Positions 4,316-24,000 of a stretch of DNA of 24,000 nucleotides are shown here, one piece after another. The notes under the pieces were generated by a model. The model saw only the letters and a list, made by a program, of their open reading frames with translations, searched no databases and was not told the origin of the DNA. Made by a program: the position numbers and the translations under genes. The stretch's first letter is position 1; each line of letters begins with the position of its first letter. The stretch spans positions 296,214-320,213 of the forward strand of contig CAWJRC010000002.1 in the NCBI GenBank assembly GCA_963845205.1, written 5' to 3'. The DNA comes from an uncultured archaeon (GTDB lineage Archaea > Nanobdellota > Nanobdellia > Pacearchaeales > GW2011-AR1).

Positions 4316-5698
4316 ATGCTTCTCCCATCAAAAAATGAAGTAAGGAAGCCTACAAAAACAATCTCTGGAATTACTCCTGTAGCAGTTATGCTGCCTCCAA
4401 GAGAATGCAAGCACGGGACCTGCTTATACTGCCCCAGTCTGGATGTCCCGCAAAGCTATACTCCAAAAAGTCCTGTTGTTATGAGGGCAGCTGTAGTTAA
4501 TTACAATTCTTATGAACAGGTAAAAGCGAGAGTAAAAGCATTTGAGGCAATGCATCATCCGACAGAAAAGATTGAGCTAATAATTATGGGGGGAACTTTC
4601 CTTGAATACCCCAAAAATTTTCAGAACGATTTCATAAAAAATTGTTACGATGCACTTAACGGAAAAAAATCCAAAACTTTGGAAAAAGCTCAGAAATTAA
4701 ACGAGAAAGAAGAACATCGGTGTGTAGCTCTTTGCGTAGAAACCCGTCCAGATGAATGTATACAGTATATTCCAAGAATGAGAGAATTTGGGGTAACAAG
4801 AGTTGAACTTGGAGTTCAGATGCCTGACGATAAAATTTACAAAATGATAAAAAGAGGGCATAGTGTCAAAGATGTTGCAGACGCGACAAAAGCTCTGAAA
4901 GACGCAGGATTCAAGGTTGGTTATCATATTATGCCTGGCCTGCCTTCAAGCAATCCAAAAAAAGATTTGCAGCTATTCAAAAAGATATTTTCTGATGAGA
5001 GATTTAAGCCAGATCAATTAAAAATTTATCCATGCCAAGTTATCAAAGGTAGCGAATTAGAAAATGAATACTGGAAAAAGAGATACAAGCCTTATACAAA
5101 GGAGCAGATTGAAAAATTGCTTACAGAAATGTTGAAAGCTGTTCCGAGATATTGCAGAGTTATGAGGGTCATGAGAGAAATTCCGCCCGACTACTTGATT
5201 GCAGGAACAACAAGAATTGATCTGAGAAAAGATATTGAGAGAGATTTGAGAAAAAATAAAAGTGAAATTAAAGAAATCAGATTCAGGGAAATCGGATTCA
5301 ATAATAAAAATTTAAATCAGAATCTTAAATTAAAAATTACAAAATATAATGCATCTGAAGGAGATGAGTATTTTCTTGAAATTGTAAATGATGACGATGT
5401 TCTTTTTGGTTTGCTTAGATTAAGGATTATAAATGGAAAGGCGATTGTAAGAGAATTGCATGTTTATGGACAAAGTTTAAGATTAGGAGAAGAGGGAACA
5501 ATTTCACAACACAAAGGATTTGGAAAATGGCTTATGCTCGAAGCAGAAAAAATTGTCAGCGAAAACAAATGCAAGAAAATTTCAGTTATTTCCGGGATAG
5601 GTGTAAGGGAATATTACAAAGGTCTTGGATATAAATTGGAAGACAGCTATATGGTTAAAGAATTAAAACCAAAAGCCAGCATATCCCACAACGCTTGA
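4316..5698 (+). CDS. elp3: Elp3-family radical SAM / GNAT acetyltransferase (tRNA U34 cm5 modification)
   Basis: Cys cluster CKHGTCLYCP near the N-terminus. Radical SAM core motifs IIMGGTF, VALCVETRPD, GVTRVELGVQ. Elp3-type PGLP and LKIYPC. C-terminal GNAT motif QHKGFGKWLMLEAEKI. Confidence 0.85.
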   Translation: MLLPSKNEVRKPTKTISGITPVAVMLPPRECKHGTCLYCPSLDVPQSYTPKSPVVMRAAVVNYNSYEQVKARVKAFEAMHHPTEKIELIIMGGTFLEYPKNFQNDFIKNCYDALNGKKSKTLEKAQKLNEKEEHRCVALCVETRPDECIQYIPRMREFGVTRVELGVQMPDDKIYKMIKRGHSVKDVADATKALKDAGFKVGYHIMPGLPSSNPKKDLQLFKKIFSDERFKPDQLKIYPCQVIKGSELENEYWKKRYKPYTKEQIEKLLTEMLKAVPRYCRVMRVMREIPPDYLIAGTTRIDLRKDIERDLRKNKSEIKEIRFREIGFNNKNLNQNLKLKITKYNASEGDEYFLEIVNDDDVLFGLLRLRIINGKAIVRELHVYGQSLRLGEEGTISQHKGFGKWLMLEAEKIVSENKCKKISVISGIGVREYYKGLGYKLEDSYMVKELKPKASISHNA

Positions 5699-6412
5699 TT
5701 TGTCTTCTGTAACATCACCTGAATTTTTGTATTCTATTAATTTTGGCTTCCAGTTTTTTGTCTTGCATAAATGCATCATTATCATCAGAGGGAAAAAACC
5801 GCATGCATCAATTTTTTCAAAATTTTTGATATTAAGTTCTTCTATAAGTTTTATGGTTATTTTATCTTTTTTTACTGCGTTTTCATATGGAAGAAAATGA
5901 CTCAAATCTGTTGAGAAAATATATAAGGCCTTAATGTCCGAGATTTTTTCAGCAATCTCTTTAGCTTCTTCATCGGTTATTTCCCCTACCATCAAAGGCA
6001 TTATTTCTCTAATTCCTAATTTCTGTAAAAAAGGAATTTGGTTATTTATTGAATGCTCTTTTTCTATACCTTCAAATTTAAAATCCTTATTGAACAATTT
6101 AATTTTTCCGAGCGGAGTTTCAATCTGTTTTTTATTTGATGTTAAAACTCCATGAAGAGGGATGTAATGAGAAGGGCCAAGAACAATTGCTTTCTCTATT
6201 TTTTTATCTTTCAAAAGAGAAAAAGTTTTTCCCGCCACTTTTCCCGAAAATTCATATCCTGCATGGGGAACAATTAATCCGTGAATTTCTTTTGGACTTA
6301 TCTTGTTTTTTTGTGAGAGAAGTTCATCTAACTCTTTCATCAACTCTTTTTTATCTTCAGGATACCAATCCATAACAAAAATAGCATCATAAAGTTTATA
6401 GTTTTTTTGCAA
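5663..6412 (-). CDS. amrB: MEMO1-family protein (AmmeMemoRadiSam system protein B)
   Basis: WYPEDKKEL, GLIVPHAGYEFSG, LGPSHY and DLSHF motifs are typical of Memo. The track start at 6412 is a TTG; an in-frame ATG at the complement of 6371-6373 (MDWYPED...) is an equally plausible start. The 3' end overlaps elp3 by 36 nt (convergent). Confidence 0.85.
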   Translation of the reverse strand: MQKNYKLYDAIFVMDWYPEDKKELMKELDELLSQKNKISPKEIHGLIVPHAGYEFSGKVAGKTFSLLKDKKIEKAIVLGPSHYIPLHGVLTSNKKQIETPLGKIKLFNKDFKFEGIEKEHSINNQIPFLQKLGIREIMPLMVGEITDEEAKEIAEKISDIKALYIFSTDLSHFLPYENAVKKDKITIKLIEELNIKNFEKIDACGFFPLMIMMHLCKTKNWKPKLIEYKNSGDVTEDKSSVVGYAGFWF

Positions 6413-6450: not shown

Positions 6451-6990
6451 ATGAAAAAGAGGGGATTTGATCATTTTTACGAATCGACAGAAGATATACC
6501 TCTCGTGCTTGATTCTTATGAAGATATTTTTTCTGATTTTGATCCGCGTCCATATTCAGAAAGGGCGTTATCCGAAGATTTTCTTTTTGAATGCAAAAAG
6601 GCGGCTGTAGAAAAAAAAGGAAAAATCCATCTGAGATTATTCCTTCCAAAATCAAAAAGGCATCCCCTTGATGAAATAAAAATAAAGAAAAGATTAAAGG
6701 AACATTTTCACAAACATTTCCTAGAAAAAAAGAAGGACATAATGAGCACGAGACTGAATGGATTTACTTGGTCTGTTATTGGTTTTTGTATGATGTTTAC
6801 ATCTGCATTTTTTTGGGGGGAAGAAGGGCCTTTTGGAATTAATCTCCTAGTTACACTTGTCCAGCCAGCAGGATGGTTTTTTATGTGGGAAGGTTTGGCT
6901 AAAATTTTCATCGCACCAAAAGAACATATGCCTAATTATACTTTTTACAAAAAGATGGCAAATTCTACAGTTACTTTTGCAAATTATTAA
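6451..6990 (+). CDS. Hypothetical membrane protein (179 aa)
   Basis: Acidic soluble N-terminal half (DSYEDIFSDFDPRPYSERALSEDFL) and two or three hydrophobic helices in the C-terminal half. It sits between the Memo gene and the radical SAM gene. Confidence 0.6.
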   Translation: MKKRGFDHFYESTEDIPLVLDSYEDIFSDFDPRPYSERALSEDFLFECKKAAVEKKGKIHLRLFLPKSKRHPLDEIKIKKRLKEHFHKHFLEKKKDIMSTRLNGFTWSVIGFCMMFTSAFFWGEEGPFGINLLVTLVQPAGWFFMWEGLAKIFIAPKEHMPNYTFYKKMANSTVTFANY

Positions 6991-6994
6991 TAAA

Positions 6995-7855
6995 ATGAAA
7001 TTAGCAGAGTTGTACAAAAAAGAGAACGGAAAAATAAGATGTTTTGCCTGTGCGCAAAGATGTATGATTTCTGAAGGCAGAACCGGAATTTGTGGAGTAA
7101 GGAAAAATATTGGAAATAAATTATATCTCTTGGTTTACGGGAGAGTTGCTTCAATGAATATCGATCCCATTGAAAAAAAGCCATTATACAATTTTTTGCC
7201 GAACACATACAGTTTTTCTATAGGAACAATCGGATGCAATTTCAGATGCGATTTTTGCCAGAATTTTGAGATATCACAGGCCGGAAAAGAAGGGATGATT
7301 TTCGGTGAAAAAATCACCCCCAAAGAAATTGTTGAAAAGGCAATTCAGGCAAAATGCGAGAGCATATCTTATACTTATAACGAACCCGCAATTTTTATCG
7401 AATTTGTAAAAGACATTGCGAAAATTGCCAAAATGAAAAAACTGAAGAATGTTCTAGTCACAAATGGTTTTTTTACTAAGAAATCATTTGATTATATCTC
7501 GGATTATGTTGATGCTATGAACATTGACTTAAAATCTTTCAGCGAAGATTTTTACAGAAAAATTTGCGGTGCCAGATTAGAGCCTGTTCTTGATACAATA
7601 AAGATGGCGCATGAAAAAGGGATTCATATTGAACTTACGACTTTAGTAATTCCTGGTGAAAATGATTCTGAAAAAGAATTTGAAAAAATTGCGAAATTTA
7701 TTGCATCTGTAGATAAGAATATTCCTTGGCATATCTCTAGATTTTTTCCAATGTACAAAATGCTTGGCAAGGATATAACTCCCATTTCAACCTTGAAAAA
7801 GGCAGAAAAAATTGGTAAGAAATATTTAAATTACGTTTATGTCGGGAATGTATGA
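6995..7855 (+). CDS. amrS: AmmeMemoRadiSam system radical SAM enzyme (PflA-like activase fold)
   Basis: MKLAELYKKENGKIRCFACAQRC...GICGVR N-terminal Cys motif, then the radical SAM CNFRCDFCQN (CxxxCxxC). I moved the start from the track's 6857 to the in-frame ATG at 6995, because the first 46 codons overlap the preceding gene and look non-coding. Confidence 0.85.
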   Translation: MKLAELYKKENGKIRCFACAQRCMISEGRTGICGVRKNIGNKLYLLVYGRVASMNIDPIEKKPLYNFLPNTYSFSIGTIGCNFRCDFCQNFEISQAGKEGMIFGEKITPKEIVEKAIQAKCESISYTYNEPAIFIEFVKDIAKIAKMKKLKNVLVTNGFFTKKSFDYISDYVDAMNIDLKSFSEDFYRKICGARLEPVLDTIKMAHEKGIHIELTTLVIPGENDSEKEFEKIAKFIASVDKNIPWHISRFFPMYKMLGKDITPISTLKKAEKIGKKYLNYVYVGNV

Positions 7856-8391
7856 TGAAGAAATATAATGAACTCTTGAAACTTAGCCGAAATGCAATTG
7901 AATCTAAACTAGACAATAAACAATTGAAGATTTCAGAAACTATAAAGAAGAAATATTCTGAAAAAAAAGCAAGTTTTGTTACGCTAACTGAGCATGGCGA
8001 ACTAAGGGGGTGTATTGGAAGTCTGTATCTACGGCAAGAATTGTATAAAGACGTTTCTGAAAATGCAATTCATTCAGCATTTGATGATCCGAGATTTACT
8101 ACTCTAGACAAAAATGAATTATCCAAGATAAAAATAGAAGTTTCTGTTCTATCTGTTCCTGAAAAAATTAATTTTAAAAATGAAACTGAACTCCTGAAAA
8201 AAATTGACAGAAAAATGGGACTGATCTTGGAAAATGGATATAATTCCGCAACCTTTCTCCCACAGGTTTGGGAGCAGATTTCTGATAAAGTTGATTTTTT
8301 AGAAGAACTTTCAATGAAAGCAGGTTTAGGAAAAGATGCATGGAAAAATTCTGAGATTTATTTCTATAGGGTTGAAAACGTAAAAGAATAA
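7852..8391 (+). CDS. amrA: AMMECR1 domain protein (AmmeMemoRadiSam system protein A)
   Basis: FVTLTEHGELRGCIGS...AIHSAFDDPRF and ATFLPQVWE motifs. ATGA start/stop overlap with amrS. Confidence 0.85.
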   Translation: MMKKYNELLKLSRNAIESKLDNKQLKISETIKKKYSEKKASFVTLTEHGELRGCIGSLYLRQELYKDVSENAIHSAFDDPRFTTLDKNELSKIKIEVSVLSVPEKINFKNETELLKKIDRKMGLILENGYNSATFLPQVWEQISDKVDFLEELSMKAGLGKDAWKNSEIYFYRVENVKE

Positions 8392-8984: not shown

Positions 8985-9821
8985 ATGTCAAAAATTAATA
9001 GGAATAACAATAATTTAATCAAGATTTATTTGAAAGAAATAGGCAAATATCCTCTTTTAACTCATGATGAAGAAATAGAATTAGGCAAAGCAAAAGAAAA
9101 TAACAAAGAAGCTTCTCAAAAATTAATAAATTCTAATCTGAGGTTAGTTGTAAGTATAGCAAAATATTATCAAAGAAGAGGACTTCCTTTGGAAGATTTA
9201 ATCTCGGAAGGAAATACTGGACTTATGGCTGCAGTTGAAAAATATGATTATAGTAAGGGTTATCGATTCGCATCTTATGCTGTTTGGGACATAAAACAAA
9301 AAATTTTGAAAGCACTTGCAGAACAACCAAAAGGCATAAAGATTCCTTTTAATAAACTATGTGACTTATCAAAAATTAATAAACTTCTTTACAATAAAGA
9401 TCCCTCGAAATTGGGAAATATAGAACAAATAGCAAAAACACTTAATATTGAACCTGAGTTTGTTAGCTATCTTCTTAAGATCTCAAAAGAAACTATTTCT
9501 CTTGATCTCCCTGTTGAAAGTGATTTTGGAGAGCAAAATCTTTTGGAGGATAAGATCTCTCAACAACCTGCGGAATCAGCAATAAACAATTATTTGAAAG
9601 ACGATATCAACAATGTACTTAAGGATCTTTCCCCAGAAGAAATGGATATTATAGAAAAAAGATTTGGCCTTAATGGAAATTACCCCCATACACTGGAGGA
9701 TATTGGCAAAGAATACGATCTAACAAAAGAGAGGATAAGGCAGATTGAAGAAAAGGGGTTAAGAAAATTAAAAAGCGATACTTTTGTTAAGGAAAAATTA
9801 ATTTCTTATTTAGAAGAATAA
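8985..9821 (+). CDS. Sigma-70 family RNA polymerase sigma factor (regions 1.2, 2, 3 and 4 present)
   Basis: Region 1.2: [22 protein letters not shown]. Region 2: [57 protein letters not shown]. Region 4.2 HTH: [28 protein letters not shown]. Confidence 0.85.
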
Positions 9822-10161: not shown

Positions 10162-13100
10162 ATGAAAAAGAAGGGGGGAATTTTCTTATCTATTTTGATA
10201 TCAATTCTTATTCTTAATTTTGCATCTGCTGCAATCGGAAATTCTTTACACCTAAATATTCAGACGATAAATTCAACAGGAGGGGTGATTACAGGAACAT
10301 TTAACTTTGGTTTTAACATTTCCACTACAAGTGATTGTAATGCTACAAATGTTGTTTATGCAAATGCTTCAACTCTTACAACAGACTCACGAGGGATAAT
10401 TTCTTATTATTTAGACAATGTAAACATTAATTTTTATAGCCAATATTACTGGCTTTGTTATTACAGGAACGGGGTTTTGATAAATTCTTCAAAAATTGTA
10501 GGAATTCCTTATTCTCTTGCTTCTCAAAATACAACTTTAAGCGGTGTAAAGGTTGATAGCAATTTAGTTATGGGAACTTACAATATAACTTCTTCCTGGT
10601 TCTTTGGACTTTTTTCCTGGCTTGTAAACAATGATGTATCTCAAAATTATTTATCATTTAACGGTTCAACTTTAAGCTTTAATGAAACAAAATTAAATAA
10701 TACAATCGATAATATAGCAGCTGTTTTTGGGAATGCCTCTTGGAATCAAAGTTTTGCAAATACATTATATGCAACTATTGGAACTACTAGTGGAAACTTA
10801 TCTTGGAATCAATCATTTGCTAATGGATTGTATGCACCAAATACCACTGCTGGTATTCAATACTTGATTAACTCAACAGGAATTTATTCACAAGGGGGGA
10901 ATGCCTCTTGGAATCAAAGTTTTGCAAATACATTATATGCAACTATTGGAACTACTAGTGGAAACTTATCTTGGAATCAATCATTTGCTAATGGATTGTA
11001 TGCACCAAATACCACTGCTGGTATTCAATACTTGATTAACTCAACAGGAATTTATTCACAAGGGGGGAATGCCTCTTGGAATCAAAGTTTTGCAAATACA
11101 TTATATGCAACTATTGGAACTACTAGTGGAAACTTATCTTGGAATCAATCATTTGCTAATGGATTGTATGCACCAAATACTACAGCAGGGATACAATTTC
11201 TGATTAATGGAACAAATGTGAATTTCTTAAATGTTAATGCAAGTGGAGAAACGATAAATGGAAATTTGACTGCAACTAATTTTATAGGAAACGGGGCATA
11301 CCTTACGGGGATAAGTGGAGGTAGTTCATTCCCTTGGATTAATAGTACAAGTTATGTTCAATTAAACTCTTCTGCAATTCAAGCACTTAATGTTTCTAAT
11401 TTCTTGTTTGTAAATTCAACTAATGTTGGAATAAATGTAACTAGTCCAATATATGAATTACAATTAGGAAATGCAGGAAATGCATTGAATGTTTCAGGAG
11501 TTTTGTATGTTAATTCAACGAGCGGATTTGTTGGGATAAATCAAACAAGTCCGAGTTCATTGTTAGATGTTGGAGGGTCAAGTGGGCAAATTGCACAATT
11601 TGGTGATGCTGGAGGTTTATCCAATCAAAATTATATAACTATAGGGGGAAGCGCCATGTTTGGGTATGATGGAACAACAGATGATGCAGCAATTCAGGGA
11701 ATTTCCGGGAAAGGTATAGAATTTAATGTAGGCAATACTACTTTTGGAGCTAGCAGTTCAACAGCAATGGTAATAACATCTGGGGGGGATATCGGTATTA
11801 ATACAACGAGTCCGACAAATGAATTAGATGTTGGCGGCACAGGAGTTTCTGGAGCGGCTATCTATGGAAATGGAAGTAATCTTCCTTACGCTGTTGGGGT
11901 TTATGGAAGGGGAGATAGTAATATTGGGGTTGAAGGTGTTGGTAGTACTGGAGTTTGGGGAATTGGTAGCATTGGAGTTCAAGGTAGTGGAACTAGCTAT
12001 GGGGTTTATGCCAATGGTGCAGGTGCTTATGATTTCTATGCTGCAAATGCTACAGGAGAAAGTTACTTTGCGGGGAAAATAGGAATAAACGTGAGCAGTC
12101 CAATCTCTTTATTAAGCATAAATGATGCTGGAAATTCTTCATCAAGTTTGTATTCTTACAACGGCCAAACTGGTGGTATAGGAATTTTTGCAAATTCTTC
12201 AAATGCTGGGGGTGTGGGAATATATTCTTACGGCGGAGACAAAGGAGTATTAAGCTATGGAACGAATTATGATTTTTATGGAGGAAATCCTTCGGCATCA
12301 AATTATTTTGCAGGAAATGTAGGTATTGGTAGTGCTACAAGTCCGGTTGCTCCTTTAGATATTTATAATGGGGCGGATCATTTAGCATTATCTGTAGGAT
12401 TAATAAATTCTACAAGAGGTACTAATGGAATGTGGATAACTTCTAGTGCAGATATAAAATTAATTACAGATCAAGCTAAAACGGGTTCATTTGCTGATGT
12501 AGGATTTTATTATCAAAATTCAACAAATCCTAGAATTTATTTTAGAACAAATGGAGATTCTTATTTTAATACTAGCGGAAATGTAGGAATAGGAACAACA
12601 AGTCCAATATCGACATTAAGTGTAGGGGGGAATGGACTTTCTAATGCAGAAATTTATGGTTCTTATAGTTCTGCAGTAGGGGGAGGTTATGGTGTTTATG
12701 GAACCAGTTCTGGTACTGGTGTTCAAGGAATTACCACTGGGAATACTTCTGTTAATTTTGGGGGAAATTTCAGTGCTCCCAACGGAAATTATGCAGAAAT
12801 GGCAACAGGAAATGGTTATGGAATTATTGCAAAATCATCTGGGAGTGCTTATGGGGTTTATACTAATTCATTATATGTTACAACAGGACCTTCACACATT
12901 GAAGGAACACTTTACGTTGCAGGAGGATATGGGAATATTCAATCTGGAGATGTTGCAGAAGATTTGCAGACAATAGCAGGAAGAAATGCAGCATTATGTG
13001 CAGGAAATGTGTCATGTATGGTTAATGATTACAAAAAAGAAGACTTGTCTTATGGGGATGTTGTCTGCATTAATCCAAATTACGGTGAGACAATAATGCT

Positions 13101-13404
13101 CTGCAATGAATCTGATTCAGAATTAGTCGCAGGAGTAGTATCAAATACTTCAACAATAGATATGGGAAGTAATATCTCATTTTCTTATCCAATTGCAGTT
13201 GCAGGAATTGTTTACACAAAGGTTCTTGCAGGAAGCGAAGGAATAAAGCCTGGAGACTTATTAGTTTCAAGTTCTGTTCCGGGATATGCAATGAAAGCCC
13301 CTGCAAACTGGACAGAAGGGACAATATTGGGAAAGGCTTATGATTTCTGCGACACAAGATATTATACTAACTGCACAATACCTATGTTTGTTGCATTAGA
13401 ATAA
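10162..13404 (+). CDS. Large secreted, sequon-rich surface protein (putative S-layer / adhesin-like glycoprotein, tail-fibre-like repeats)
   Basis: Signal peptide MKKKGGIFLSILISILILNFASA. About 56 N-X-S/T sequons by hand count. Six copies of a [VI]GI[GN]xxSPxxxLx[VI] motif (for example VGIGTTSPISTLSVGG). Gly/Ser/Asn/Tyr-rich composition. Distinct Cys-containing C-terminal ~170 aa. Confidence 0.85.
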   Translation: MKKKGGIFLSILISILILNFASAAIGNSLHLNIQTINSTGGVITGTFNFGFNISTTSDCNATNVVYANASTLTTDSRGIISYYLDNVNINFYSQYYWLCYYRNGVLINSSKIVGIPYSLASQNTTLSGVKVDSNLVMGTYNITSSWFFGLFSWLVNNDVSQNYLSFNGSTLSFNETKLNNTIDNIAAVFGNASWNQSFANTLYATIGTTSGNLSWNQSFANGLYAPNTTAGIQYLINSTGIYSQGGNASWNQSFANTLYATIGTTSGNLSWNQSFANGLYAPNTTAGIQYLINSTGIYSQGGNASWNQSFANTLYATIGTTSGNLSWNQSFANGLYAPNTTAGIQFLINGTNVNFLNVNASGETINGNLTATNFIGNGAYLTGISGGSSFPWINSTSYVQLNSSAIQALNVSNFLFVNSTNVGINVTSPIYELQLGNAGNALNVSGVLYVNSTSGFVGINQTSPSSLLDVGGSSGQIAQFGDAGGLSNQNYITIGGSAMFGYDGTTDDAAIQGISGKGIEFNVGNTTFGASSSTAMVITSGGDIGINTTSPTNELDVGGTGVSGAAIYGNGSNLPYAVGVYGRGDSNIGVEGVGSTGVWGIGSIGVQGSGTSYGVYANGAGAYDFYAANATGESYFAGKIGINVSSPISLLSINDAGNSSSSLYSYNGQTGGIGIFANSSNAGGVGIYSYGGDKGVLSYGTNYDFYGGNPSASNYFAGNVGIGSATSPVAPLDIYNGADHLALSVGLINSTRGTNGMWITSSADIKLITDQAKTGSFADVGFYYQNSTNPRIYFRTNGDSYFNTSGNVGIGTTSPISTLSVGGNGLSNAEIYGSYSSAVGGGYGVYGTSSGTGVQGITTGNTSVNFGGNFSAPNGNYAEMATGNGYGIIAKSSGSAYGVYTNSLYVTTGPSHIEGTLYVAGGYGNIQSGDVAEDLQTIAGRNAALCAGNVSCMVNDYKKEDLSYGDVVCINPNYGETIMLCNESDSELVAGVVSNTSTIDMGSNISFSYPIAVAGIVYTKVLAGSEGIKPGDLLVSSSVPGYAMKAPANWTEGTILGKAYDFCDTRYYTNCTIPMFVALE
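10731..11234 (+). repeat. 3 x 168-bp in-frame tandem repeat inside the surface-protein gene
   Basis: Unit starts (gaatgcctcttgg...) at 10731, 10899 and 11067. Units 1 and 2 are identical by eye over all 168 bp. Unit 3 is identical for about 113 bp, then diverges. Each unit encodes 56 aa: NASWNQSFANTLYATIGTTSGNLSWNQSFANGLYAPNTTAGIQYLINSTGIYSQGG. Confidence 0.9.
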
Positions 13405-14038: not shown

Positions 14039-14072
14039 TTAAATTTTTATATTGATTTCTTCTTTACCCGTT

Positions 14073-15605
14073 ATGAGTTTCAAAAGAATGAAGACTGTAA
14101 AAATCTTCTTAGCCCTCTTGTTAATATTAATCTCCGGATTTTTTATTTATGGGGTTCATTACAGTTATTCTGGGATTATACAGGACCCGCACAGCAATCC
14201 TGTTTTTTTAAATGTCACAAATCTTAATTACCCCTTTCCGGTTCATGCAGATGAATGGACTCATCTGGGGCAGATAATTTATATTATCAACAGCAAGACA
14301 TTAGGATTTGTCAATCCCTATTCCCCTAGTTTAACAAACAACAATGAGCTGGAAGTTGGTTTTAATCTATTTCTTGCATTATTTTTCATAATCACAACTT
14401 TGAATCCTGTCCTGAGTTATCAATTCCTCCCGGCAATTTTTTTCATGATCAATGCAACTTTACTTTTCTTTTTCGTCAAAAAACTGACTAAGAATTATTA
14501 TATTGCATTATTTTCCATCTTATTTTTTCTAGCAATTCCAAGCAATATAAATTTTTTGGGAAACTGGTTTGCTGTCCCTTTAACTTTCAGCATATTTTCA
14601 ATTTATCTTTTTTTTATCTGCCTAATTGATTTTATAGAGACCAAAAAGAAAAAATATCTTGCAGGTACAATTATTTCTTATGCAGTTTCATTATGTTATC
14701 CTGTAGCAACTGTATTCATAACAGCAATCGCATTTTTTTATATCATTTCAGAAAGAGATATTTACAACAAATTAAAAAAATATAAAATCCCTTTAATATT
14801 GTTGTCTTTGTTTCTTATCGCGGCTTTAATCTTCTTAATGAATCATTTTTCTTTTTTGATATTCCCAGCTGGCTGGACGTCTGATCAATACAACTATTCT
14901 TTGATATTTTTTTACGGAATCTTGCCTACATTATTTGCATTTATCGGAGTCTATTTCGTTTTGGATAAAAAGTTTAACCGGATATTCCTTATATGGCCTG
15001 CGGTATGTCTGATCAGCCTTTTTATATTCAAAATTTTTGGAATAAGCTTTTTTATCCCCTATGAAAGAACAATGTATTACTATCTCCTAGGGCTTGTTCC
15101 ATTGGCTGCGACAGGATTTTTTTATATTCTCAAATCCCTGTACGATTTAATAGCAAAGAGAATTCCAAGGAACAAGAAAAAATTTTATTTAATCATTATA
15201 ATTATCATCACATTATTAATGTCCTTTTTTATCCTGAGAAATTATTATTCTGTTGGCGAAGACAACTTTGCAGTCATGCACTTAATTGAAAAGCAGGATT
15301 ATGACGCAATAAAATTTATTGGAGATAATTACGGAAAAGGTAAAATAGTCCTAGCAGACAATCTTATTTCAACAGCTATTTATCCAATCAGCCAGGATTA
15401 TGTTGTCGGAATTTTGAGTTCTAATCTGGGGGACGGGAATCTTACGTTAGCAGATGATTTTTTTATGGGCGATTGCGGGGATAAAGAGGAAATAATAAAT
15501 GATTATAAAGTCGATTTAGTTCTTTCAAGATTTGAGATGAATTGTGACTCTTTAAAAGAAGTCTATGATAAAGAAGGAGATTATGTTTATGAAGCTGAAA
15601 AATGA
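14073..15605 (+). CDS. Polytopic membrane protein, putative GT-C-fold glycosyltransferase (PMT/ArnT/GtrC-like)
   Basis: More than 10 hydrophobic helices. Acidic HADEW motif in the first external loop after TM1. Soluble C-terminal ~120 aa. No WWDYG motif, so not an obvious AglB/STT3. I prefer the ATG at 14073 over the track's TTG at 14052. Confidence 0.65.
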   Translation: MSFKRMKTVKIFLALLLILISGFFIYGVHYSYSGIIQDPHSNPVFLNVTNLNYPFPVHADEWTHLGQIIYIINSKTLGFVNPYSPSLTNNNELEVGFNLFLALFFIITTLNPVLSYQFLPAIFFMINATLLFFFVKKLTKNYYIALFSILFFLAIPSNINFLGNWFAVPLTFSIFSIYLFFICLIDFIETKKKKYLAGTIISYAVSLCYPVATVFITAIAFFYIISERDIYNKLKKYKIPLILLSLFLIAALIFLMNHFSFLIFPAGWTSDQYNYSLIFFYGILPTLFAFIGVYFVLDKKFNRIFLIWPAVCLISLFIFKIFGISFFIPYERTMYYYLLGLVPLAATGFFYILKSLYDLIAKRIPRNKKKFYLIIIIIITLLMSFFILRNYYSVGEDNFAVMHLIEKQDYDAIKFIGDNYGKGKIVLADNLISTAIYPISQDYVVGILSSNLGDGNLTLADDFFMGDCGDKEEIINDYKVDLVLSRFEMNCDSLKEVYDKEGDYVYEAEK

Positions 15606-18751: not shown

Positions 18752-19734
18752 AAACTTTATTTTTATCCCATTGCCCTCATGAAGTTCATCTTGAATTTGC
18801 AAAATCGATCGGGGCAAAAATAAAAATTACTCATCTAAATTGGTTTGTTTTGCTTTATAAGAAAATTCCTTTAATCAGCTACTTTTATCCTTCCCTCTCT
18901 TTTTTGTACAGCCTTTTTATCAGCTCTCAGGAAGATATTTTATTGGTTGATGGAGGTTCTTCTTTATATCTTGCGGCCTTTTTAAAATTGAGAAATCCTA
19001 AAATTAAGATTATATACCTAGATGGGGATATGATTTTTTATTACCTAAACAAACAATCTACACTAACAGATAATTTTAGACTCTCTTTTTTTTTCAGAAA
19101 GATTGACGGAATTATCTCTGTTTCTGAACAAAATAAAAAACTTGCTTTAAAATATGTTAATGTACCTGTAGAAGTGGTTAACCCTTATCCAAAACAAATT
19201 AAAAAAATAGATATTAAAAGGAAAAATTATGGATTATATGTCGGAAGACTAGATCCTGATAAAGACATTAAAAGAATTCTGGGATTTGGTTTGCAGTGTC
19301 CTTATTTTGAAAAATTTATAATTGTGGGTGATGGGGCGTATAAAGGTTACATAAAAAGAATTTCTAAACAAAATAAGAAAATAATTTATATGGGGCAAAG
19401 AAAAGATGTGGATAAGTTTTATAACGAATCTAAATTTTTAATTCACATCCCTGATTATGATCCTCATCCATGTACAACAATGGAAGCAGCAATGTGCGGA
19501 TGTTTTCCAATAATCTCTGCAGGGACAGGAACTAATTACTTATTTGACAAAATGTTTATTGTAGAAGATTCTAACAATTTTAATGAAATTAATGAAAAAA
19601 TAAAAAATATACTTGATAATGCAGGAAAGGCAAGAAAATTGCTTAAACAGTCTGTTAAAAAATTTCCAACAAAAGAAAAAGCAATCAAAATATTTGAAAA
19701 TTCATTTAACAAAATAACAAATAATAAAAAATGA
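18748..19734 (+). CDS. GT-B-like glycosyltransferase (divergent GT4/GT1)
   Basis: GLYVGRLDPDKD...IIVGDG...PCTTMEAAMCGCFPIIS resembles a GT-B C-terminal domain, but the second Glu of EX7E is replaced. ATGA overlap upstream. Confidence 0.6.
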   Translation: MKTLFLSHCPHEVHLEFAKSIGAKIKITHLNWFVLLYKKIPLISYFYPSLSFLYSLFISSQEDILLVDGGSSLYLAAFLKLRNPKIKIIYLDGDMIFYYLNKQSTLTDNFRLSFFFRKIDGIISVSEQNKKLALKYVNVPVEVVNPYPKQIKKIDIKRKNYGLYVGRLDPDKDIKRILGFGLQCPYFEKFIIVGDGAYKGYIKRISKQNKKIIYMGQRKDVDKFYNESKFLIHIPDYDPHPCTTMEAAMCGCFPIISAGTGTNYLFDKMFIVEDSNNFNEINEKIKNILDNAGKARKLLKQSVKKFPTKEKAIKIFENSFNKITNNKK

Positions 19735-20741
19735 AAGAAAATTTACTTGTAACGCTCGCAGACAAGAATTACATTGATCAGGCAAAGCAGCTGTTTTCAA
19801 GCGTTTACTGGAATGCAGGATGGAAAGGAGATTATATGCTTCTTGCTCATGAAATCCCCGAAAAAGACCTGAAATGGTTCAGGGACAAGGGTATTCTAAT
19901 TAAGAAATGCAAATTGTTATACAACAAAGTGTGGGAGTGGTTTTCACCAATTATATTAGACAAGTTTTATTTATTTACTCCTGAATTTAAGAAATGGAAA
20001 CATGTTATCTTCCTAGATGCAGATATTATTGTAAGGGCTTCTTTGGATAAACTAATGAAAACAACAGGATTTAACGCAGTTACTGATATGGATGGCCCTA
20101 AATTAAAAAATCAGATTACCGAAAAAAGTAAAAGCATATTTTTGGAGAAAAAATTCAGACTCAATAAAAAATGCTTTAATTCAGGGGTTATGGCTTTTTC
20201 TACAGATATAATAAAAGAGGATAGTTTTTCTAAATTAAAAGGATTATTCCTTGAATATAAACAATTTAGTAAATTTTGGGAACAATTAATCCTTAATGTT
20301 TATTTTTATAAGAAATGGAAAAAACTGCCTTTGGTCTATAATCTTTATTCGTTTTCATTGGTAGAGTATAATAAGATTAACATTAAAAGAGTAAGGGCAA
20401 TAATTTTTCATTTTGTTAAATTTGATAGTCTTTATTCCAAACCTTGGGAAAAAAATAACCCTTTTAACCCTGAATGGAAATATAATTTAGAAAGAGCAGA
20501 TTTGATTGATTTGAACAATATTCCTGAAGGAAAAGGATTTAATTTCTATTTTCTACCTTTATTTTTAAAAAGTGTGTCCTACATTCATTTTTTATTTAAA
20601 AAAGAAAGAGTCTATAAAAGAATAAAAAATATTTTTCGCTATGTAATAAATACTCCTGATAGGATTATAGGACAAATTGGAATTTTGATAAAAAAGCACA
20701 ATCCTGATTTGTATTACAAATTAAAGGGAGTAAAAAAATGA
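19731..20741 (+). CDS. GT8-like glycosyltransferase, array copy 1 (336 aa)
   Basis: GT8-type motifs: LADKNYIDQAKQLFSS, FLDADIIV (DxD), FNSGVMAF, EQLILNVYFY, HF...KPWE. Confidence 0.8.
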   Translation: MKENLLVTLADKNYIDQAKQLFSSVYWNAGWKGDYMLLAHEIPEKDLKWFRDKGILIKKCKLLYNKVWEWFSPIILDKFYLFTPEFKKWKHVIFLDADIIVRASLDKLMKTTGFNAVTDMDGPKLKNQITEKSKSIFLEKKFRLNKKCFNSGVMAFSTDIIKEDSFSKLKGLFLEYKQFSKFWEQLILNVYFYKKWKKLPLVYNLYSFSLVEYNKINIKRVRAIIFHFVKFDSLYSKPWEKNNPFNPEWKYNLERADLIDLNNIPEGKGFNFYFLPLFLKSVSYIHFLFKKERVYKRIKNIFRYVINTPDRIIGQIGILIKKHNPDLYYKLKGVKK

Positions 20742-21778
20742 AAGAGAACTTACTTGTGACGCTTGCAGACAAGAATTACATTGATCAGGCAAAGCAGCTG
20801 TTTTCAAGCGTTTACTGGAATGCAGGATGGAAGGGAGATTACATGCTTTTGGCTCATGAAATTCCTGAAAAAGACCTGAAATGGTTCAGGGACAAGGGGA
20901 TTCTGATTAAGAAATGCAAGCCAATCTATGAACATAAGATTGGGATTAAAGAGCTTCGCTCAGGAACTGTAATAAGCAAATTTTACCTATTTACTCTTTA
21001 TTTCAAAAAATGGAAACATGTTATTTTTATAGAATCAGACACGATAGTAAGGGCATCGTTAAACAGGCTTTCAAAAATTAAGGGATTTTATGCTACAGAT
21101 GTTTCTGATAAACCAAAACTTTTAGATCAGATTTCAGATATCCGTTTTTTTAATGAGCTAAACAAATATGACTTAAATAAACCAAGTTTTAATCCTGGGG
21201 TTATGGCTTTTTCCACGAATATAATAAAAGATGAAACTTTTACAGAATTAAAAAGTTTATTTAAAAAGTATAAAGCAATAAGCAAATATGGGGAAGAATT
21301 TATCATTAATGTTTACTTTTACAAGAAATGGAAAAAATTGCCTTTAATCTATAACCTATGGCCCCATTATCTTGATTTTTATTATAATATAAAGCCTAGG
21401 AATGTTCAAGCGGTTATTTTACATTTTGCAGGAATAGATGATAAAAAAGAACTTCGCCCATGGGATCCTTTCAATCCTTTTTACCCCGAATGGAAATCTA
21501 ATCTAGAAAAGGCAGAATTAATTGATTTGAACAAGATTCCTGAAGGAAAGAAATGGAGCAGTTTCAAAATTTATTCTTATTCTTTTTATTTGAATAGGAA
21601 GATTTTACGTAAAAAATTACCTATCTTAATAGAAAAAATTGTTTTATCAAAAAGAAAGATTGTTTCTTGGGTGAAATATGTTATTGGCACTCCCGATAGG
21701 ATTATAGGACAAATTGGAATTTTAATAAAGAAGCACAATCCTGATATGTACTACAAATTAAAGGGGGTAAAAAAATGA
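20738..21778 (+). CDS. GT8-like glycosyltransferase, array copy 2 (346 aa)
   Basis: Same N-terminal 61 aa as copy 1. FIESDTIV replaces the DxD. Also FNPGVMAF, GEEFIINVYFY, HFAG...RPWD. Confidence 0.8.
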   Translation: MKENLLVTLADKNYIDQAKQLFSSVYWNAGWKGDYMLLAHEIPEKDLKWFRDKGILIKKCKPIYEHKIGIKELRSGTVISKFYLFTLYFKKWKHVIFIESDTIVRASLNRLSKIKGFYATDVSDKPKLLDQISDIRFFNELNKYDLNKPSFNPGVMAFSTNIIKDETFTELKSLFKKYKAISKYGEEFIINVYFYKKWKKLPLIYNLWPHYLDFYYNIKPRNVQAVILHFAGIDDKKELRPWDPFNPFYPEWKSNLEKAELIDLNKIPEGKKWSSFKIYSYSFYLNRKILRKKLPILIEKIVLSKRKIVSWVKYVIGTPDRIIGQIGILIKKHNPDMYYKLKGVKK

Positions 21779-22803
21779 AAGAAAACTTGCTTGTAACGCT
21801 TGCAGACAAGAATTACATTGACCAGGCAAAGCAGCTGTTCTCAAGCGTTTACTGGAATGCAGGATGGAAAGGGGATTACATGCTTCTTGCTCATGAAATT
21901 CCTGAAAAAGACCTGAAATGGTTCAGGGACAAGGGGATTCTGATTAAGAAATGCAAGCCATTATACAATAAGCCGATTGGAGAAGGTTACCGCCCTGTTG
22001 TTTTAGACAAGTTTTATTTATTTACTCCTGAATTTAGGAAATGGAAGCATGTTATTTATTTGGATGCAGATATTATTGTAAGGGCTTCTTTGGATGAACT
22101 AACAAAGGTTAACAGATTTGCAGCAAGTGATTCTATATTCCAGTTAAGGAAACAATTTTTCAATAGGACTAAGAATGAAAAATTGTTTTTTGAGGAAATA
22201 AATCTTGGTTATAATATTAATAAACTTTCATTTAATACAGGAGTTCTAGCCTTTCCAACTAATATAATTCAGGAAAATTCTTTTAATGAATTAAAAAAAA
22301 TTTTTAAGAGATATAAATCTATTTGTCGGATAGGGGAGGAACCAATTTTTAATTTATTCTTTTATAGAAAAAGAAAAAAAATTCCTTGGGTTTATAATAC
22401 AGATATGCTTAGGATTATTTATGATTGTAACATTAAACCCGAAAAAATAAAAGGGGTTACTTTACATTTTATATCCTGCCCCTCAATAACTAATAAACCT
22501 TGGGAAAAAAATAATCCTTTTTATCCCGAATGGAAATCTAATTTAGAAAGAGCAGAACTGATTGATTTGAATAATAGAATTCCCCCTAAAAAAAGATGGA
22601 GAGAAGTTACAGCAGAATATTACACCTTATATTTGAAGTCGAGGGAAAAAATTGTTTTTATTATTAAACTTACTCATTCAAAGATTAAAAAAACTTTTTA
22701 TTTCTTAATAAATACTCCTGATAGAATTATAGGACAAATTGGAATTTTAATAAAAAAGCACAATCCTAATCTGTACTACAAATTAAAGGGGGTAAAAAAA
22801 TGA
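21775..22803 (+). CDS. GT8-like glycosyltransferase, array copy 3 (342 aa)
   Basis: Same N-terminal 61 aa. YLDADIIV, FNTGVLAF, GEEPIFNLFFY, HF...KPWE. Confidence 0.8.
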   Translation: MKENLLVTLADKNYIDQAKQLFSSVYWNAGWKGDYMLLAHEIPEKDLKWFRDKGILIKKCKPLYNKPIGEGYRPVVLDKFYLFTPEFRKWKHVIYLDADIIVRASLDELTKVNRFAASDSIFQLRKQFFNRTKNEKLFFEEINLGYNINKLSFNTGVLAFPTNIIQENSFNELKKIFKRYKSICRIGEEPIFNLFFYRKRKKIPWVYNTDMLRIIYDCNIKPEKIKGVTLHFISCPSITNKPWEKNNPFYPEWKSNLERAELIDLNNRIPPKKRWREVTAEYYTLYLKSREKIVFIIKLTHSKIKKTFYFLINTPDRIIGQIGILIKKHNPNLYYKLKGVKK

Positions 22804-23834
22804 AAGAAAACTTGCTTGTAACGCTTGCAGACAAGAATTACATTGACCAGGCAAAGCAGCTGTTCTCAAGCGTTTACTGGAATGCAGGATGGAAAGGGGA
22901 TTACATGCTTCTTGCTCATGAAATTCCTGAAAAAGACCTGAAATGGTTCAGGGACAAGGGGATTCTGATTAAGAAATGCAAATTACTGTCCAAGAAAGGG
23001 TGGGGGTGGTTTTCACCAATTATATTAGACAAGTTTTATTTATTTACTCCCGAATTCAAAAAATGGAAACACGTTATTTTTCTCGATGCAGATATTATTG
23101 TAAGAGCTTCTTTGGATAAACTAGCGAAAACAACAGGATTTAATGCAGTTACTGATATGGATGGTCCTAAATTAAAAAACCAGATTACCGAAAAAAGTAA
23201 AAGCATATTTTTAGAGAGAAAATTCAGACTCAATGCAAAATTTTTCAATGCAGGCGTTATGGCTTTTTCTACGGATATAATAAAAGAGGATAGTTTTTCT
23301 AAATTAAAAGAATTATTCCTTGAATATAAACAATTTAGTAAATTTGGGGAACAATTAATTCTTAATGTTTACTTTTACAAGAAATGGAAAAAACTGCCTT
23401 TGGTTTATAATCTATGGCCATATTATCTTAATTTCTATTATGATTTAAAACTAAGAACTATTCAAGCTATTATTTTTCATTTTATAGGAATAGATGATAA
23501 AAAAGAATTTCGTCCATGGGATCCTTTCAATCCTTTTTACCCTGAATGGAAATCTAACCTAGAAAAAGCAGAATTAATTGATTTGAACAAGATTCCTGAA
23601 GGAAAGAAATGGAGCAGTTTCAAAATTTATTCTTATTCTTTTTATTTGAATAGGAAGATTTTACGTAAAAAATTACCTATCTTAATAGAAAAAATTGTTT
23701 TATCAAAAAGAAAGATTGTTTCTTGGGTGAAATATGTTATTGGCACTCCCGATAGGATTATAGGACAAATTGGAATTTTAATAAAGAAGCACAATCCTGA
23801 TATGTACTACAAATTAAAGGGGGTAAAAAAATGA
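22800..23834 (+). CDS. GT8-like glycosyltransferase, array copy 4 (344 aa, chimeric)
   Basis: Same N-terminal 61 aa. The core is nearly identical to copy 1 (FLDADIIV, FNAGVMAF, GEQLILNVYFY). The C-terminal third matches copy 2. Confidence 0.8.
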   Translation: MKENLLVTLADKNYIDQAKQLFSSVYWNAGWKGDYMLLAHEIPEKDLKWFRDKGILIKKCKLLSKKGWGWFSPIILDKFYLFTPEFKKWKHVIFLDADIIVRASLDKLAKTTGFNAVTDMDGPKLKNQITEKSKSIFLERKFRLNAKFFNAGVMAFSTDIIKEDSFSKLKELFLEYKQFSKFGEQLILNVYFYKKWKKLPLVYNLWPYYLNFYYDLKLRTIQAIIFHFIGIDDKKEFRPWDPFNPFYPEWKSNLEKAELIDLNKIPEGKKWSSFKIYSYSFYLNRKILRKKLPILIEKIVLSKRKIVSWVKYVIGTPDRIIGQIGILIKKHNPDMYYKLKGVKK

Positions 23835-24000
23835 AAGAAAACTTACTTGTAACGTTTGAGGAATGTGTAGAACTTGGTAAATCTTTAAGACGAGAGGGTA
23901 AAAATGTATTAGCTATAAAGGCATTTAAAAAAGCTAAAAAGATGTTCCCTGTTCGGGATGATGTATTCCTAAAAAATAAAATACTTAATGAAATTGAGGT
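23831..24000 (+). CDS. Hypothetical protein, partial (runs off the window)
   Basis: My translation: MKENLLVTFEECVELGKSLRREGKNVLAIKAFKKAKKMFPVRDDVFLKNKILNEIE..., open to the window end. ATGA overlap with copy 4. The first 8 codons are shared with the GT8 paralogues. Confidence 0.5.
   Translation, partial: MKENLLVTFEECVELGKSLRREGKNVLAIKAFKKAKKMFPVRDDVFLKNKILNEIE

Follow-up and report, generated by a model that had tools for sequence, protein, structure and literature searches.

We analysed a stretch of 24,000 nucleotides (the window; G+C ~30%) from contig CAWJRC010000002.1 of an uncultured archaeon of the Pacearchaeales, which carries near its right end a tandem array of four glycosyltransferase family 8 (GT8) genes, c1 to c4. 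The subject of this study is c4, a mosaic gene whose parts match different members of the same array. The four GT8 genes stand at the end of a same-strand glycan-synthesis block that spans from 14052 to the window end (Table 1). All of them follow one plan, with a conserved head (61 codons), a divergent catalytic core and a conserved tail of the last ~31 codons, and because each tail is followed by the conserved head of the next gene, a stretch of ~270 nt of high identity lies at each gene junction. Neighbouring genes overlap by ATGA stop/start sequences, and the array is co-oriented and translationally coupled. The open reading frame (ORF) that follows c4 runs beyond 24000, and its GT8-like beginning, which resembles a fifth head cut short and joined to a neighbouring gene, marks the right edge of the array. 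Each head also holds a perfect palindrome, CCTGAAATGGTTCAGG (coding LKWFR; 19868-19883, 20875-20890, 21912-21927 and 22937-22952), flagged by a terminator scan on the minus strand in all four units, which may simply reflect the conservation of the coding sequence.

Table 1. Window coordinates of the GT8 array, its genes and the segments that make up c4.
Feature	Position	Strand	Remarks
Polytopic membrane protein, 517 aa, many predicted spans	14052-15605		Directly upstream of the AglJ-like GT2 gene; without Pfam or NCBIfam match
Tandem GT8 array, 4.02 units	19726..23854	+	Direct-repeat families D1-D4; periods 1007, 1037, 1025 and 1031 nt
c1, 336 aa	19731..20741	+	Alpha-type core; older paralog of the c4 core
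c2, 346 aa	20738..21778	+	Beta-type core; IESD replaces the LDAD metal-binding motif; B-type C-terminal third common to c4
c3, 342 aa	21775..22803	+	Gamma-type core; head identical to c4 head
c4, 344 aa, mosaic gene, last of four	22800..23834	+	Intact; every family-invariant residue kept
Contiguous c2/c3 junction, 445 nt (c2 tail and c3 head)	21512..21956	+	Maximal exact repeats; holds both sequences that recur in c4
Recent tract 1, 210 nt	22772..22981	+	Identical to 21747-21956 (c3 5' end)
Alpha-type core of c4, residues 62-204, DxD at D96/D98	22982..23411	+	~92% to c1 19913-20336; 30-80% to c2 and c3
Older c2-type tract, residues 205-256, HF and RPW motifs	23412..23567	+	Identity to c2 rising from 77% to 94%
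Recent tract 2, 277 nt	23568..23844	+	Identical to 21512-21788 (c2 3' end); residues 257-344 and stop
Truncated fifth head	23831..23854	+	Next ORF opens with GT8 codons MKENLLVT (24 nt), then diverges (FEECVELGK...; FEECVELGKSLRREGK...)

Mosaic structure of c4

The original prediction described c4 as a three-part recombinant of c3, c1 and c2. A four-way nucleotide alignment of c1-c4, examined by sliding identity and maximal exact-match extension, bears out the patchwork but divides it into at least five parts of three ages. Identity along c4 is not uniform, and its nearest paralog switches abruptly. Both proposed identities, of 22800-22981 with 21775-21956 and of 23568-23834 with 21512-21778 (offset 2056), are exact, and both belong to larger maximal blocks, of 210 nt (22772-22981) and 277 nt (23568-23844), around which background identity is 30-80%. 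The first block starts 28 nt upstream of c4, inside the c3 tail, spans 32 nt at the end of c3 (22772-22803, with the 4-nt ATGA overlap counted in) and 182 nt at the start of c4, and stops exactly where the divergent core begins (22982). Heads are 92-96% identical among all four copies; over the same 182 nt, c4 differs from c1 at 11 positions, from c2 at 9 and from c3 at none, its assignment to c3 depending on 4 informative sites. The second block continues 10 nt past the c4 stop codon, that is 14 nt into the overlapping next ORF, and ends where the likeness of that gene to a GT8 head stops (23845). Both blocks cross gene borders, and in c2/c3 they are overlapping parts of the single 445-nt junction; a 42-nt piece is present three times in the array (21747-21788, 22772-22813 and 23803-23844).

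Between the two blocks, the centre of c4 tracks the c1 core with scattered substitutions, as had been noted, with 36 differences over 22982-23411 (~92% identity) and 92% protein identity over residues 62-204. The non-synonymous differences between these two alpha cores number 13, among them codon 186, which is Trp in c1 (KFWEQ; 20286-20288) and Gly in c4 (KFGEQ; 23355-23357), as in most family members. Further downstream, identity to c2 rises in steps from 77% to 94% to 100% toward the 3' junction: 17 differences over 74 nt at 23412-23485 and 5 over 82 nt at 23486-23567 precede the exact block, in line with the earlier description of this region as merely similar to c2. A division of the C-terminal thirds into two types had also been put forward. 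Type B, common to c2 and c4, is real; type A is not a coherent class, as the c1 and c3 tails agree over an 82-nt island (90%) and over the final ~95 nt, but the helical stretch between these has only 41% protein identity.

Statistical tests reject chance as the source of this mosaic. When 405 polymorphic ungapped columns were shuffled (10,000 permutations), the observed run of 91 concordant c2-c4 sites was never reached (maximum 23); one permutation reached the c3-c4 run of 16 sites, and three reached the c1-c4 run of 24 sites. A neighbour-incompatibility score akin to the pairwise homoplasy index (PHI) was 0.33 against a mean of 0.59 in the shuffles, 0/10000 of which reached it, and the maximum chi-square test placed the switch from c1 to c2 at 23411-23414, just past the conserved KKWKKLPLVYNL motif; the tests of the PHI and breakpoint type that had been suggested for this gene support recombination. 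Of the parsimony-informative sites along c4, 4 first group it with c3; the c1+c4 grouping then dominates over 22982-23352 and the c2+c4 grouping from 23416 onward, a succession of topologies 34|12, 14|23 and 24|13.

Age of the segments

Synonymous (dS) and non-synonymous (dN) divergence was estimated for each segment by the Nei-Gojobori method. In the head (codons 1-61), dS was 0 for c3-c4 inside the block and 0.28-0.47 among c1, c2 and c3, with dN essentially 0 for all pairs. By our own calculation, the complete lack of differences at ~34 synonymous head sites has a chance of ~1e-4 at the lowest proportion of synonymous differences (pS) of the other pairs (0.23). In the alpha core, c1-c4 dS was 0.36 (above 1.1 for other pairs) and the dN/dS ratio (omega) of 0.11 indicates that the c1 and c4 cores are under purifying selection. 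The middle tract gave a dS of 0.57 for c2-c4 and above 1 for other pairs; in the variable tail and the conserved tail c2-c4 dS fell to 0, against 1.3-1.7 and 0.33-0.53, respectively, for the other pairs.

These dS layers imply at least two epochs in the history of c4. The older one (dS about 0.3-0.6) saw the partial homogenisation of the heads and tails of every unit, the duplication of the alpha core and the gain of c2-type sequence by c4, and both exact blocks arose in the second, very recent one (dS 0). The stepwise identity to c2 fits nested tracts anchored in the 3' junction. Recent conversion or crossing-over within the array had been proposed: recombination is upheld by the dS of 0, the abrupt switches and the cross-genome test presented below, and its recent date applies to the two outer blocks only.

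Protein family and predicted structure

All four proteins match Pfam PF01501 with scores of 56-68 bits (cutoff 24.3); no NCBIfam family matched the GT8 proteins of the array. The LDAD motif is present in c1, c3 and c4, and its two aspartates, D96 and D98, show at least 90% conservation among family members, in which H227 is invariant and followed downstream by a [KR]PW motif. An AlphaFold model of c4 (103-sequence alignment) reached a mean predicted local distance difference test score (pLDDT) of 94.9 and its best Foldseek matches were WbbM, glycogenin, GlyE and LgtC (E-values 2e-14 to 5e-11), the same set that a profile search of PDB sequences returned. On this model, c4 is predicted to be an intact GT8 enzyme with a GT-A fold and of retaining type.

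In the model, each recombination segment of c4 matches a structural part. The first beta-alpha-beta-alpha-beta of the nucleotide-binding half is made up of residues 1-61; the DxD strand and variable region lie in residues 62-204, the HF and [KR]PW motifs in residues 205-256, and the stretch 257-344 consists of a loop and a single long C-terminal helix (273-340). It may be that c4 has acquired a new specificity or localisation.

Related arrays in other genomes

A protein search returned about 650 relatives, many of them on common contigs, and a genome scan yielded 42 loci from DPANN archaea, candidate-phyla bacteria, Bacteroidales, Verrucomicrobia and others, with relatives all at 55% identity or less. 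The nearest GT8 homologs come from metagenome-assembled genomes (MAGs) labelled Pacearchaeota or Woesearchaeota. Copy number of this GT8 subfamily ranges from 1 to 6 among genomes, locus L006 having six tandem copies. In DPANN archaea, candidate-phyla bacteria, Bacteroidales, Verrucomicrobia and Deltaproteobacteria, the subfamily has an almost invariant N-terminus of ~60 residues, and the remainder of the protein is 40-55% identical; to judge from the sequences, a near-invariant head across phyla suggests wide horizontal spread combined with an unusually constrained module. The contig of the window also carries, outside the window, a fifth GT8 paralog (P0004, 353 aa) with a distinct core and an end unlike those of the array (KLKKIKDMN).

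The most informative relative is a JGI contig, L043, which is syntenic with the window and carries a GT4 gene, a GT4-like gene and then three GT8 genes. The core of the third of these (P0008, 3901-4992) is 78% identical in amino acids to the c2 core, which itself has only 48-56% protein identity to its own array neighbours, and the two cores are orthologous. Both carry IESD instead of LDAD, an ExD in which the first Asp of DxD is Glu, and its retention in two genomes makes it probably functional. The conserved tail of c2 behaves differently: it is 45% identical to that of P0008 versus 90-100% to those of its array mates. Likewise, the four array heads and that of P0004 (five paralogs) are 100% identical in protein, against 84-93% across genomes, with a head pS of 0.03-0.35 within the window array versus 0.38-0.72 between genomes. 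Altogether, these comparisons show the classic picture of concerted evolution limited to the unit ends, with cores that keep cross-genome orthology. They also orient one transfer: in the B-type middle region, c2 and P0008 are 54% identical, against 38-50%, and since this middle is paired with the beta core in each of the two genomes, it is native to the beta lineage and was received by c4 in the older c2-type event.

Homogenised heads are found in some of the other arrays. In a Patescibacteria MAG (L038), two adjacent paralogs match exactly over 299 nt at their 5' ends, after which identity drops to 35-60%; further exact matches are head blocks of 119 nt (L010) and 65 nt (L012) and an internal match of 66 nt (L044). 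An exact match of at least 40 nt occurs in 12 of the 64 within-locus paralog pairs, and 8 of these 12 matches begin in the first 200 nt. In Bacteroidales arrays such exact sharing is scarce, and heads of the L043 array are not homogenised (pS 0.52-0.81). A 26-mer common to all four heads of the window matched one contig, L045, which holds two copies with the same match statistics as L001, and JGI metagenomes contained no exact match to a 30-mer that crosses the c4 head/core junction. Exact-protein look-ups for c4 and for two further proteins of the source (P0001 and P0004) had no hits.

Other genes in the window

Besides the 517-aa membrane protein, which may be a GT-C-type or oligosaccharyltransferase-like enzyme, the glycan-synthesis block contains a GT2 gene (polyprenyl-phosphate hexose transferase-like, AglJ-like), a radical SAM/SPASM protein and two GT4-type genes. 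Upstream of the block, 10162-13404 encodes a 1080-aa protein with a signal peptide and no convincing family match, which is extremely rich in NxS/T sequons and includes three tandem 168-nt repeats at 94-97% identity (10729-11207; NASWNQSFANTLYATIGTTSGNLSWNQSFANGLYAPNTT...). Its sequence suggests that it is likely a glycosylated surface protein and possibly a substrate of the glycan cluster. Elsewhere, the window carries an Elp3-type radical SAM/GNAT gene (4316-5698), a trio of Memo, radical SAM and AMMECR1 genes (5663-6412 on the minus strand, 6857-7855 and 7852-8391) and a gene for an RpoD-like sigma-70 factor with regions 1.2, 2, 3 and 4 (8985-9821). This sigma-70 gene suggests that the DNA is bacterial, probably from the small-genome candidate phyla, and casts doubt on the archaeal origin to which the Pacearchaeota labels of the nearest GT8 homologs point.

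Discussion

Our results support recombination between array members as the only reading that fits the composition of c4. We consider it probable that the gene arose by homologous recombination that was seeded in the conserved junctions and took place for the most part as interlocus gene conversion. Recombination would begin in the conserved tail/head junctions and copy sequence between units, with conversion tracts halting where homology collapses. The history would comprise an older duplication of the alpha core common to c1 and c4, an older replacement of the C-terminal third of c4 by c2-type sequence and, last, two very recent tracts that would have made the c4 head identical to that of c3 and the last 88 codons identical to those of c2. 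The product would be an intact enzyme that joins an alpha catalytic core to the motif region and long helix of c2 type at the C-terminus. The recombination mechanism and, for the two exact blocks, the direction of transfer are what we infer from these data.

Several points weigh against this account. The exactness of the blocks is read from one assembled sequence, as no reads, sister strains or second assembly were found, and in a single genome conversion and crossing-over leave the same footprint. The direction of transfer, with c4 as recipient, is established for the older c2-type tract only. The assignment of the head to c3 depends on few sites, and the strong protein-level constraint on the head across phyla means that part of the head similarity reflects selection.

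The foremost alternative, which we regard as unlikely although such events may have contributed to the array, is that c4 entered as a whole unit (head, alpha core and B tail; 1031 nt) by reciprocal unequal crossing-over or unit insertion, either by recombination at the three-way repeat of 42 nt or by exchange between misaligned sister chromosomes, with a change in copy number as well. Exactly one unit, 22814-23844, is indeed bracketed by this repeat (22772-22813 and 23803-23844), the array closes with a head that is cut short and joined to the following gene, as unequal exchange typically leaves behind, and the number of subfamily copies varies from one genome to another. However, if c1 and c2 had crossed over once, an alpha-B hybrid would have arisen in the deletion product alone, yet c1 and c2 both remain; the steps of 77, 94 and 100% identity to c2 and the differing ages of core and ends require several events anyway; and the window holds no other donor unit with the composition of c4.

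A less likely possibility still is an assembly artefact, in which a short-read metagenome assembler collapsed near-identical repeats or threaded a strain variant of an array gene through repeats that exceed its k-mer length. The source is apparently uncultivated and metagenome-assembled, all relatives are MAGs, exact repeats of 210 and 277 nt exceed the usual k-mer sizes, and the 30-mer search of JGI metagenomes returned no independent copy of the c4 head/core junction. Against this, the c4 core is a distinct sequence of 586 nt (92% to c1, then 77-94% to c2), so that the gene itself is not a collapse product; an assembler cannot create older layers of partial identity; and the same pattern appears in independent assemblies from other groups. 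Because the three-way repeat, at 42 nt, is spanned by ordinary reads, the published unit order is by our reasoning the only linear path. The order c2-c4-c3, which would explain both exact blocks by one insertion, was rejected, as the sequences that cross this repeat fix the order. At most, an artefact could account for the perfection of the blocks, not for the mosaic.

We deem it very unlikely that the junctions serve a programmed variation system, as evolved recombination handles for a high-frequency shuffling of cores and C-terminal helices that varies the surface glycan, by analogy with what cassette-based antigenic variation (pilE/pilS-like or shufflon-like) might do. Such a system could be read from the recurrence of exact head blocks in arrays of several small-genome lineages, from the position of the array beside further glycosylation genes and a surface protein that is very large and rich in NxS/T, and from breakpoints that match the borders of structural modules. 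But neither silent nor truncated donor cassettes are present: each of the four copies is a complete ORF with a start codon, and purifying selection acts on the one pair of cores close enough for the test (c1/c4, omega 0.11). No recombinase domain was found among the scanned ORFs of the window, and its inverted repeats are only AT-rich chance ones. The conservation of the head is explained by protein-level constraint, which is also seen in an array without homogenised heads (L043), and a handful of events over a dS of about 0.5 amounts to a low rate, which likewise counts against programmed variation. Site-specific recombination or an invertible element was also considered and rejected, given the lack of meaningful inverted repeats and promoter-like sites at chance level. 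Finally, it is scarcely credible that extreme purifying selection on protein or mRNA produced the identical blocks without recombination: the head protein is 100% identical in five paralogs of the genome (84-93% across genomes) and the junction also holds a ribosome-binding region and overlapping stop/start codons, but synonymous sites are identical in the blocks where other pairs differ at 23-35% of head synonymous sites, which excludes selection as their cause, and the 277-nt block covers the variable tail, in which other copies are 33-41% identical in protein.

Recombination of tandem family members is a well-known evolutionary route, and c4 involves no new mechanism. What the array offers instead is a clean case, with dated layers, of tandem glycosyltransferase genes that evolve by module swaps. 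As a natural chimera, c4 could help to find the part of the enzyme that sets donor or acceptor specificity, in organisms whose cell-surface glycans have hardly been studied. There are practical consequences too: since the unit ends are homogenised, the ends of such paralogs are unusable for phylogeny or orthology calls, and metagenome assembly is known to be at risk from the exact repeats of 200-300 nt that such arrays contain. A broader proposal, to which we give rather little credence, is that the near-invariant head and conserved tail act as recombination handles with which lineages of the candidate phyla radiation (CPR) and DPANN reshuffle cores, C-terminal helices and copy number among paralogs; if true, this would be a family-wide and recurrent diversification of surface glycans, possibly under phage or host pressure.

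Compared with solved GT8 structures, namely the WbbM GT8 domain (6u4b), GlyE (5gvv), glycogenin (1ll2) and LgtC (1g9r), the array proteins are alike in PF01501 membership, GT-A fold, DxD motif and C-terminal His/[KR]PW, yet only 17-21% identical in sequence. They differ in the nearly invariant 60-residue N-terminus of their subfamily and perhaps in its single C-terminal helix of ~60 residues, and c2 and its ortholog P0008 carry ExD (IESD) rather than DxD. TM-scores of the PDB matches, normalised to the query, are 0.48-0.56.

In its genetics, the array resembles the lgtB/lgtH pair of Neisseria meningitidis, which we presume not to be GT8 genes: in both cases recombination runs through the near-identical 5' regions of neighbouring glycosyltransferase genes. 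In Neisseria, lgtB and lgtH are adjacent lipooligosaccharide glycosyltransferase genes with highly homologous 5' regions, and recombination there changes the gene content and the lipooligosaccharide (PMC3046118). That event is a deletion, seen directly between isolates and with a phenotype (PMC3046118), whereas the c4 events are inferred from one sequence and their outcome is a chimeric extra gene. More generally, interlocus gene conversion, concerted evolution and mosaic divergence in tandem paralogs are well described, with general examples in PMC3728101, PMC3966223 and bioRxiv 10.1101/2025.10.29.685298. Our array has the features of such arrays, with abrupt paralog switches, synonymously identical tracts, homogenised segments beside divergent islands and new combinations of parts. 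Unlike those general cases, it is a GT8 array of an uncultivated small-genome prokaryote, in which the unit ends are homogenised, each junction is a substrate for recombination and the catalytic cores remain orthologous.

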